A DNA stretch of 63,692 nt, filler included, from Barthelona sp. PAP020 (Eukaryota): the NCBI GenBank assembly GCA_040182905.1. It is 30 parts of 30 records of this genome, joined end to end, with 100 filler letters (N's around TTAATTAATTAA, not from the genome) between each part and the next. Parts side by side here need not be neighbours in the genome. Positions count along the whole stretch, not along the records: positions 21,842 to 23,893 come from JARQWU010000875.1; 29 more parts are not named here. The stretch is one strand, 5' to 3'. The translations under genes were made by a program, and so were the position numbers. The notes beneath the pieces are model-generated. The model saw nothing but the letters and a program-made list of their open reading frames with translations. It made no database searches and was not told the origin of the DNA. This document shows, piece by piece, positions 21,842-23,415 of the stretch. The number at the start of each line of letters is the position of its first letter. Within the stretch, counting starts at the first letter, position 1.

Positions 21842-23415
21842 AGAAGATCTATTTTGCAGCGCTTGAAGGTAATCTTGAGGTTGTCAAGCAATGTATTAAA
21901 GCTGGCGTTGATGTGAACAAACAAGGCAAGCAAGGAAGGACATCGCTTTGGGGAGCTTGTTTTGGTGGTCATATTGAAGTTGTTGAGTTTTTGTTGGATT
22001 TTCGTGCTAATGTCAATTTGAGTATGAATTCTGGTGTTTCTCCATTGTATGTTGGTTGTCAAAATGGTCATTTTGATGTTTCCAAAATACTCTTGGATCA
22101 TGGAGCTGATGTTAATTTGTGTCCTAATGATGGTAGTTCTCCATTGTACATCAGTTGTCAAAATGGTCATCTTGATGTTGCCAAAATGCTCTTAGATCAT
22201 GGGGCTGATATTAATTTGTGTAGGGACGGTGGATATTCTCCATTGTACATCAGTTGTGAATTAGATCATCTTGATATCGCCAAAATGCTCTTGGATCATG
22301 AAGCTGATATTAATTTGTGCAATAATAACGGTGCTTCTTTATTGTACATCAGTTGTCAAAAAGGTCATCTTGATGTCGTCAAAATGCTCTTGGACCATGA
22401 AGCTGATATTAATTTGTGCAATAATAACGGTGCTTCTTTATTGTACATCAGTTGTCAAAAAGGTCATCTTGATGTCGTCAAAATACTCTTGGATCATGGA
22501 GCTGATGTTAATTTGTGTCCTAATGATGGTAGTTCTCCATTGTACATCAGTTGTCAAAATGGTCATCTTGATGTCGTCAAAATGCTCTTGGATCATGGAA
22601 CCGATATTAATTTGTGTATGAATGAAGGTGCTTCTCCATTGTACATCAGTTGTGAACTTGGTCATCTTGATGTTGCCAAAATACTCTTGGATCGTGGGGC
22701 TGATGTTAATTTGTGTGATAATGAAAGTTTTTCGCCATTGTGCATCAGTTGTCAAAATGGTCATCTTGATGTTGCCAAAATACTCTTGGATCATGGAGCT
22801 GATGTTAATTTGTGTAATAATAATGTTGCGTCTCCATTGTACATCAGTTGCCAAAAAGGCCATCTTGATGTTGCCAAAATGCTCTTAGATCATGGAGCTG
22901 ATGTTAATTTGTGTAGGGACGGTGGATTTTCTCCATTGTATATCAGTTGTTATAAAGGTCATCTTGATATTGCCAAGATGCTTCTAGATTGTCCCGAAAT
23001 AAACTTATATGGTGAAGATATGCTGTTATTTTTCAACATATTGTATTCAAGTGATGAACAATGGAAAAAAAACCAATACAGCATTTTGAGCTGTCCCAAT
23101 TTAAAACAACAATTGGAGAGTGGCGAGCCTGTTGATTTGAAATTTGACCATTTATCCAAATCCGAGTTAATTGAATTGGTGAAGGATAAGGGCTATTTGT
23201 TATCAACACTTGTTGAAATGAAGGTTGACAGTGTCATTATCCGAGAATTTGTCAAGGCTGGAGTCTACATGAATCAAAGAGATTTTGACATGTCAATCGA
23301 CTATTGTTGGGATTTGATCGACATCAATGAAAGGAATGGTGGTAATATGCGTCAGTATATTGATGAAGAGATAGAAGATGATGACAGTGATGAGAGTGAT
23401 GACAATGATGATTAG
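21842..23415 (+). CDS. Ankyrin-repeat protein (12 visible repeats) with shared CWDL..GGNM C-terminal domain, 5' partial
   Basis: 33-aa repeats G.SPLYISC..GHLDVAKMLLDHGADVN; C-terminus CWDLIDINERNGGNM plus acidic tail. Confidence 0.95.

Follow-up and report, generated by a model that had tools for sequence, protein, structure and literature searches.

We found that an ankyrin-repeat gene of Barthelona sp. PAP020 combines a homogeneous ankyrin array, whose scaffold is conserved while its face varies freely, with a short C-terminal domain that is shared with WD40 proteins and is apparently lineage-specific. The gene lies in the window, by which we mean the whole stretch of DNA analyzed (63,692 nucleotides, filler included). 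The window is made up of 30 contigs of about 2 kb each, which are unlinked and separated by artificial N-linkers, so that the sole true context of the ankyrin gene is 21842-23893. The features of this contig, followed by those of other contigs, are listed here.

21842..23893, contig with the ankyrin gene (2052 bases, N-linker on each side)
21844..23415 (+), ORF encoding P0001, 523 amino acids, 5'-open (start codon absent, N-terminus missing)
21844..22107 (+), three divergent N-terminal ankyrin units, with homology to kinase-ankyrin proteins
22108..22989 (+), homogeneous array R3-R11, nine 99-bp ankyrin units, variable chiefly at positions 1, 3, 5, 13 and 14
22990..23142 (+), linker behind the last ankyrin unit, also in P0014 and P0020
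23143..23367 (+), common C-terminal domain, P0001 residues 434-508, five helices predicted
23368..23415 (+), acidic tail of P0001 and stop codon
23699..23893, dispersed repeat at the end of the ankyrin-gene contig, 88-97% like stretches in contigs 7, 10, 20 and 24
1401..1610 (-), other contig, C-terminal domain in a broken copy, interrupted by in-frame stops
5030..6271 (-), other contig, WD40 protein with the common C-terminal domain (P0002, 5030-6241)
9476..10678 (-), other contig, WD40 protein with the common C-terminal domain
24405..25877 (+), other contig, divergent WD40 protein with the common C-terminal domain (profile E 2.8e-15; this protein was absent from the profile that detected its domain)
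33406..34635 (-), other contig, WD40 protein with the common C-terminal domain
31015..31695 (-), other contig, ankyrin paralogue that stands alone, sharing the N-terminal module of P0001 but lacking the common C-terminal domain

Several further features of the window were recorded. Dispersed repeat families (100-300 bases, 80-97% alike), possibly MITE-like, were frequent at contig ends, with sites at 1822-2130, 3532-3669, 14713-15019, 20106-21029, 23699-23893, 38795-38897 and 51139-51438, and a long inverted repeat was located at 20569-20891. A 142-residue ORF without a Pfam match at 32069-32494 (-) resembles, by eye, the 3'-terminal part of a non-LTR retroelement, and 197 bases (57172-57368) match at 94% between its contig and contig 27. 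In a gene that we take to be BBS9-like, a 42-base GT..AG intron (46848-46889, +) carries an in-frame stop, which suggests unspliced genomic DNA. A protein with CoA-binding and ATP-grasp domains is encoded at 11022-13094 (+), presumably as in the ADP-forming acetyl-CoA synthetase of anaerobic protists.

Variation and selection in the ankyrin array

Tandem-repeat analysis identified an array at 22006-22982 with a period of 99, 9.9 copies, 84% matches and zero indels, in frame throughout the ORF. Pfam detected 12 ankyrin stretches in P0001 (E 2.9e-87), with bit scores of 282 for PF00023 (cut-off 21.1) and 308.8 for PF12796 (cut-off 27.3). Both analyses bear out the tandem 99-bp ankyrin units claimed in the initial annotation, and its nine hairpins and the residue pairs QN, EL, QK and YK correspond exactly to units R3-R11. 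Its description of the units as near-identical needs qualification. The array is real, but base identity averages only 83% (71-98%), that is, a mean unit-to-unit base difference of 17% (range 2-29%) in R3-R11. At the protein level, pairwise identity of units was 74-76%; for R3-R10, identity to the majority residue was 83.7% and pairwise identity 75.5%. We compared this homogeneity with that of arrays of at least six units among 117 outside hits. As 2 of these 56 arrays reach 80% identity to the majority residue, the homogeneity of R3-R11 is unusual, not unique.

The variation is unevenly spread over the unit. Mean pairwise base difference was 42% in codons 1-5, 13 and 14 and 9.7% in the remaining codons. 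The almost invariant framework described previously holds for 16 of 33 positions in the protein and 9 of 33 codons in the DNA, while positions 7, 19, 20, 22, 27 and 30 vary. Position 1 is the most variable, and positions 10 (Ile) and 33 (Cys) are invariant. As the surface set we fixed a priori positions 2, 3, 5, 13, 14 and 33, which is reportedly the DARPin set, with position 14 said to come from the original design. Variation was clustered at these surface positions, as had been claimed: the nonsynonymous difference (pN) of this set, 6 of 30 codons, was equalled or exceeded by 5160 of 593,775 six-codon sets (exact p 0.0087). Per-position variability also tracked that of three older kinase-ankyrin arrays, from which nine units were used (Spearman 0.58, p 0.0008).

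We then asked how selection differs between the surface and the scaffold. By counting, pN and pS were 0.34 and 0.49 in the a-priori set and 0.09 and 0.23 in the remaining codons; by this measure, the variable codons also had a synonymous difference 1.5-2.2 times that of the others (not significant in a likelihood model, p 0.75-0.86). Under codon models implemented in purpose-written code with one topology and 30 codons x 9 units, whose assumptions are violated by recombination, omega was 1.08 for the a-priori set against 0.24 for the scaffold, a difference with p 1.3e-5. The value of 1.08 did not differ from 1 (p 0.83; interval about 0.5-2.2). For the seven positions named in the initial annotation (1-5, 13 and 14), omega was 1.44 against 0.14 for the scaffold (p 0.29 against 1). 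The proposed check of dN/dS at the named sites thus returned an excess over the scaffold and none over neutrality. The scaffold of R3-R11 is under purifying selection, with omega of about 0.14-0.25. Diversifying selection is not demonstrated, because the omega of the surface (about 1.1-1.4) is not significantly greater than 1; strong selection across the whole face is unlikely, but weaker selection may act at a few sites. In general, relaxed selection on young repeats leads to fast divergence, as described in passages of PMC5120217.

An alternative explanation is that shuffling of units combined with positive selection produces new binding specificities against changing foreign proteins, as in fungal NLRs. 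Site-class tests for positive selection were not significant (M2a versus M1a, p 0.31; M8 versus M8a, p 0.27), while M8 versus M7 gave p 0.032. Positions 1, 5, 13 and 14 head the top site class with posteriors of 0.71-0.91 (M2a), and these four sites, picked post hoc, have an omega of 3.3. These sites speak for the alternative, together with the mosaic signal among units described below, the rarity of equally homogeneous outside arrays, the turnover suggested by broken domain copies, and the same pattern in Podospora ankyrin repeats (passages of PMC4986451). However, all four tests that include a neutral class (p 0.83, 0.29, 0.31 and 0.27) fail to support it. One significant value, an omega of 7.75 (p 0.0002) for the previously named positions on a scaffold-only tree, depended on the tree and vanished when the local synonymous rate was left free (p 0.35). 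Power was limited, as in simulations an omega of 2 was detected in 15 of 25 cases and an omega of 3 in 21 of 25. The selection for diversity claimed earlier was not supported, and we consider this alternative unlikely.

Exchange between units was examined in R3-R11. PHI-type tests gave p<0.05 in 20 of 21 settings, with nearby informative sites more compatible than distant ones, and only 10-46 of 1000 clonal simulations were as extreme. Overall site incompatibility was not above that of clonal simulations, 148-238 of 1000 of which reach the observed level. The trees of the hairpin half and the helix half differ, and R7 consists of the hairpin of R3 and the helix-2 codons of R5. The mosaicism, seen in R7 and R10, lies chiefly between hairpin and helix 2, rather than between hairpin and positions 13-14. 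From this modest statistical signal, which agrees with the recombination proposed previously, we infer exchange between the units. The recurrence of hairpins in new combinations was found in part. RDGG switches its partner between EL and YK, but PNDGS always occurs with QN and NNNGA always with QK (twice each), so that just one of three recurring hairpins gains a new helix-1 pair, which speaks against diversification by shuffling. The Leu codons of the two EL pairs differ at two of three bases. A single 33-residue unit is the exact difference between P0014 and P0020; the two may represent alleles, paralogues or assembly isoforms.

Short-read assembly could in principle account for the order, number or mosaicism of the units. 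The contigs are about 2 kb long and many end in dispersed repeats. The longest exact internal repeats of the array are 96 and 89 bases, 34-738 alternative orders exist at k 25-33, and short-read assemblies of such arrays in Podospora are described as unreliable in passages of PMC12222747. Against such an artefact, the unit order is unique at k >=55 given the word counts, positions 1-14 cover just 42 bases, the reading frame is unbroken through every unit, and similar hairpins are present in separate paralogues. This explanation is very improbable, with the copy number of R5/R6 taken from the assembly as it stands.

The common C-terminal domain and its carriers

Four WD40 ORFs of the window have ends that can be aligned to P0001 residues 434-508, in agreement with the shared C-terminal domain proposed previously. 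In total, 6 of the 30 contigs contain the domain, with one copy broken. A single-sequence search with the domain within P0001 found nothing among 40 candidates, whereas profile searches succeeded, with 15 matches in one and 44 among 1.84 billion representatives in another. We examined 55 proteins and dropped one, P0055, as a repeat-driven false match. The remaining 54 carriers comprise 43 WD40 proteins, 4 ankyrin proteins (one with a kinase-like front, by eye) and 7 others or fragments (one armadillo-like). All 20 carriers checked by name are EukProt records of Barthelona sp. PAP020. Metagenome contigs yielded no confirmed match among 319 domain pattern matches and viral contigs none among 8, these searches addressing close relatives only. 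The literature searches listed no description of the domain family (supplementary proteome tables may include it), and the words ankyrin, ubiquitin and cullin each occur zero times in the main text of PMC11316075.

The domain is about 75 residues long and predicted to be helical. R, G, L, N, G and N are invariant in 49 aligned rows, and a W-D pair is near-invariant. The polar residues R, N and N together with W-D suggest a putative binding site. The domain forms the extreme C-terminus: in all 53 carriers measured, nothing but an acidic tail (6-29 residues) comes after it. The model of the domain has five helices (pLDDT 85.8). In the model of the WD40 carrier P0002 (pLDDT 91.9), the domain follows a propeller-like core of seven strand sets with an N-terminal helix; this helix and two long strands (19-30 and 308-317) lie at the sides of the propeller, leading on to the domain.

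Family and fold searches gave no assignment. Pfam, with E up to 10, returned no meaningful family for five window copies and three short carriers. A PDB sequence search gave two weak matches (E 0.35 and 1.1), and Foldseek found 0 matches at E 0.001 against PDB and viral structures. The VIA fold search of 48,161 chains found none at Z >=5 (best Z 4.2, armadillo designs), and SOCS, UBA and F-box chains were absent among the fold matches listed, an absence that does not count against such folds. Propellers were the sole matches of the P0002 model with WD40 and domain together. An atlas search gave weak leads, one of them at 0.83, under the atlas's own 0.9 line, and a further atlas search yielded no usable match. 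A UBA-like reading of the domain was rejected, with no support in the Foldseek, VIA or Pfam searches.

In a tree of the domain that omits four long carriers and one fragment, and in which 28 of 45 branches are unresolved, the three ankyrin carriers included form one group amid the WD40 carriers (support 98/88). The N-terminal ankyrin units of P0001 correspond, by homology, to the first part of the ankyrin module in the kinase-ankyrin proteins P0067, P0096 and P0109 and in the ORF at 31015-31695; the three kinase-ankyrin relatives, all checked by name, are EukProt records of Barthelona sp. PAP020. We infer that a WD40 propeller before the domain was exchanged for an ankyrin module from the kinase-ankyrin family. 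The closest paralogues of the ankyrin module have a kinase or nothing in front, and since the 5' end of the gene is missing, a kinase in front of P0001 is possible. Since the ankyrin module is also found behind kinases or on its own, mixing of modules extends to both sides. The window also contains a 5'-cut ankyrin tail at 57419-57591 (-), the end of which resembles the kinase-ankyrin paralogues, and on the same contig a frameshifted ankyrin relic at 55860-56099 (-). Broken domain copies suggest birth-and-death turnover. The C-terminal domain marks out a family that ranks among the larger ones of a deep metamonad lineage, with apparent module swapping from WD40 to ankyrin. The novelty rests mainly on this domain, which is without family or fold assignment.

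Possible roles of the C-terminal domain

With moderate confidence, we favor a single account of both parts of the gene. The array would have been expanded and homogenized, likely by unequal crossing-over or gene conversion acting on the nine units. The scaffold is kept while the predicted binding face varies at about the neutral rate. By analogy with known receptors, the constant C-terminal domain would dock interchangeable modules on one common partner, and the scaffolds in front would pick the targets. A tentative extension, drawn from the layout of the proteins, is that this partner is a ubiquitin-ligase scaffold, as for SOCS-box proteins. A 3'-cut ORF at 8428-8730 (+) is Skp1/Elongin C-like (Pfam Skp1_POZ E 0.005, below the cut-off; PDB Skp1a E 0.016) and is a candidate partner of the domain.

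The domain may instead be a degenerate ankyrin-like cap or a localization tag, with the array an ordinary young expansion in the metamonad kinase-ankyrin/ankyrin family. The weak ankyrin likeness of its middle helix may fit a capping or tag role as well as docking. The domain profile matched ankyrin helix 2 over 19 columns. Its score of 15.9 exceeds that of the best among 60 column shuffles (13.5), but the probability is 6.9%. Ankyrin-1 was the PDB sequence match at E 1.1, and ankyrin proteins occur among the weak fold matches (Z about 3; TM 0.56, E 3.3). In Giardia, moreover, NEK and ankyrin proteins number in the hundreds, most of them without a known function, according to passages of PMC7641422. 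However, every ankyrin resemblance of the domain is below significance, and the conserved polar residues suggest a binding site. A WD40 propeller needs no cap, yet 43 carriers have the domain behind one. We regard the cap or tag reading as improbable.

We place about as little weight on a bolder version of the docking account, a barthelonid receptor repertoire of this free-living anaerobic protist. Here, the C-terminal box would connect over 50 binding modules of WD40, ankyrin and armadillo-like type to a single machine, which would probably be a ubiquitin ligase of divergent type. The ankyrin member would, in an immune-like manner, generate new specificities by unit shuffling, with positive selection acting on four surface positions.

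Comparison with known systems

Large families that mix kinase and ankyrin modules with varied C-terminal domains are likewise known in another metamonad, Giardia (NEK and ARP-1/2/3; passages of PMC7641422). There, ARP-2 adds zinc fingers, whereas Barthelona adds a helical domain, mostly behind WD40; the likeness is one of description (PMC7641422).

The variable face was compared with designed ankyrin libraries, in which positions 2, 3, 5, 10, 13 and 33 are randomized and Asp is fixed at position 1 (passages of PMC4308713). R3-R11 share with these libraries a fixed scaffold and variable positions 3, 5 and 13, but differ at three others: 33 is fixed as Cys and 10 as Ile, and position 1 shows the highest variability. 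In the DARPin-type set used here, four of six positions are clearly variable. The match to the DARPin surface proposed in the initial annotation is partial and applies to positions 3, 5, 13 and 14; position 2 is only N or D, and positions 1 and 33 depart as above.

The proposed parallel with fungal NLRs was likewise only partial. According to passages of PMC4986451, the PNP-UDP/NACHT/ANK proteins of Podospora also have homogeneous ankyrin units that vary at the hairpin and the inner helix, and signs of exchange between units are common to both. The line drawn there is 85% identity over at least 100 residues, and P0001, at 83.7% by a different measure, is just below it. In Podospora NLR sensors the repeats come after the other domains, whereas in P0001 they precede the common domain. 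Pfam found neither NACHT nor NB-ARC, and thus no nucleotide-binding domain, in the 523 residues encoded by the 5'-cut ORF of P0001, and positive selection is not demonstrated in P0001, in contrast to the Podospora repeats. Ankyrin arrays that are homogeneous and vary on one face are already known; the array part of our findings is modest, with no significant excess over neutral drift.

The SOCS box, about 40 residues long, belongs to receptors of similar layout. We tested the BC box as (S,T,P)LXXX(C,S,A)XXX-hydrophobic and the Cul5 box as LP-phi-P. A full BC box was present in 1 of 49 rows, off the conserved register, the Cul5 box in 0 of 49, and Pfam SOCS_box did not match the domain. A Leu-x-x-hydrophobic-Ser-Lys core in the domain recalls the BC box: in the aligned register, Leu occurs in 39 of 48 rows, C/S/A in 43 of 48 and R/K in 40 of 48, with the first position matched in 3 of 48 and the last in 3 of 48. 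Judged by these motifs, the domain proteins are not SOCS-box proteins. The domain is without BC box and Cul5 box and is about twice as long. The ankyrin (ASB) and WD40 (WSB) receptors of Cul5-Elongin BC ligases consist of a repeat scaffold and a C-terminal box, as described in PMC3355856 and PMC3779351. Like these, the Barthelona family places differing repeat scaffolds before one short helical C-terminal module and, by analogy, its members may work like SOCS-box proteins. If the domain is indeed a ligase-docking box, these proteins would represent a new class of substrate receptor.
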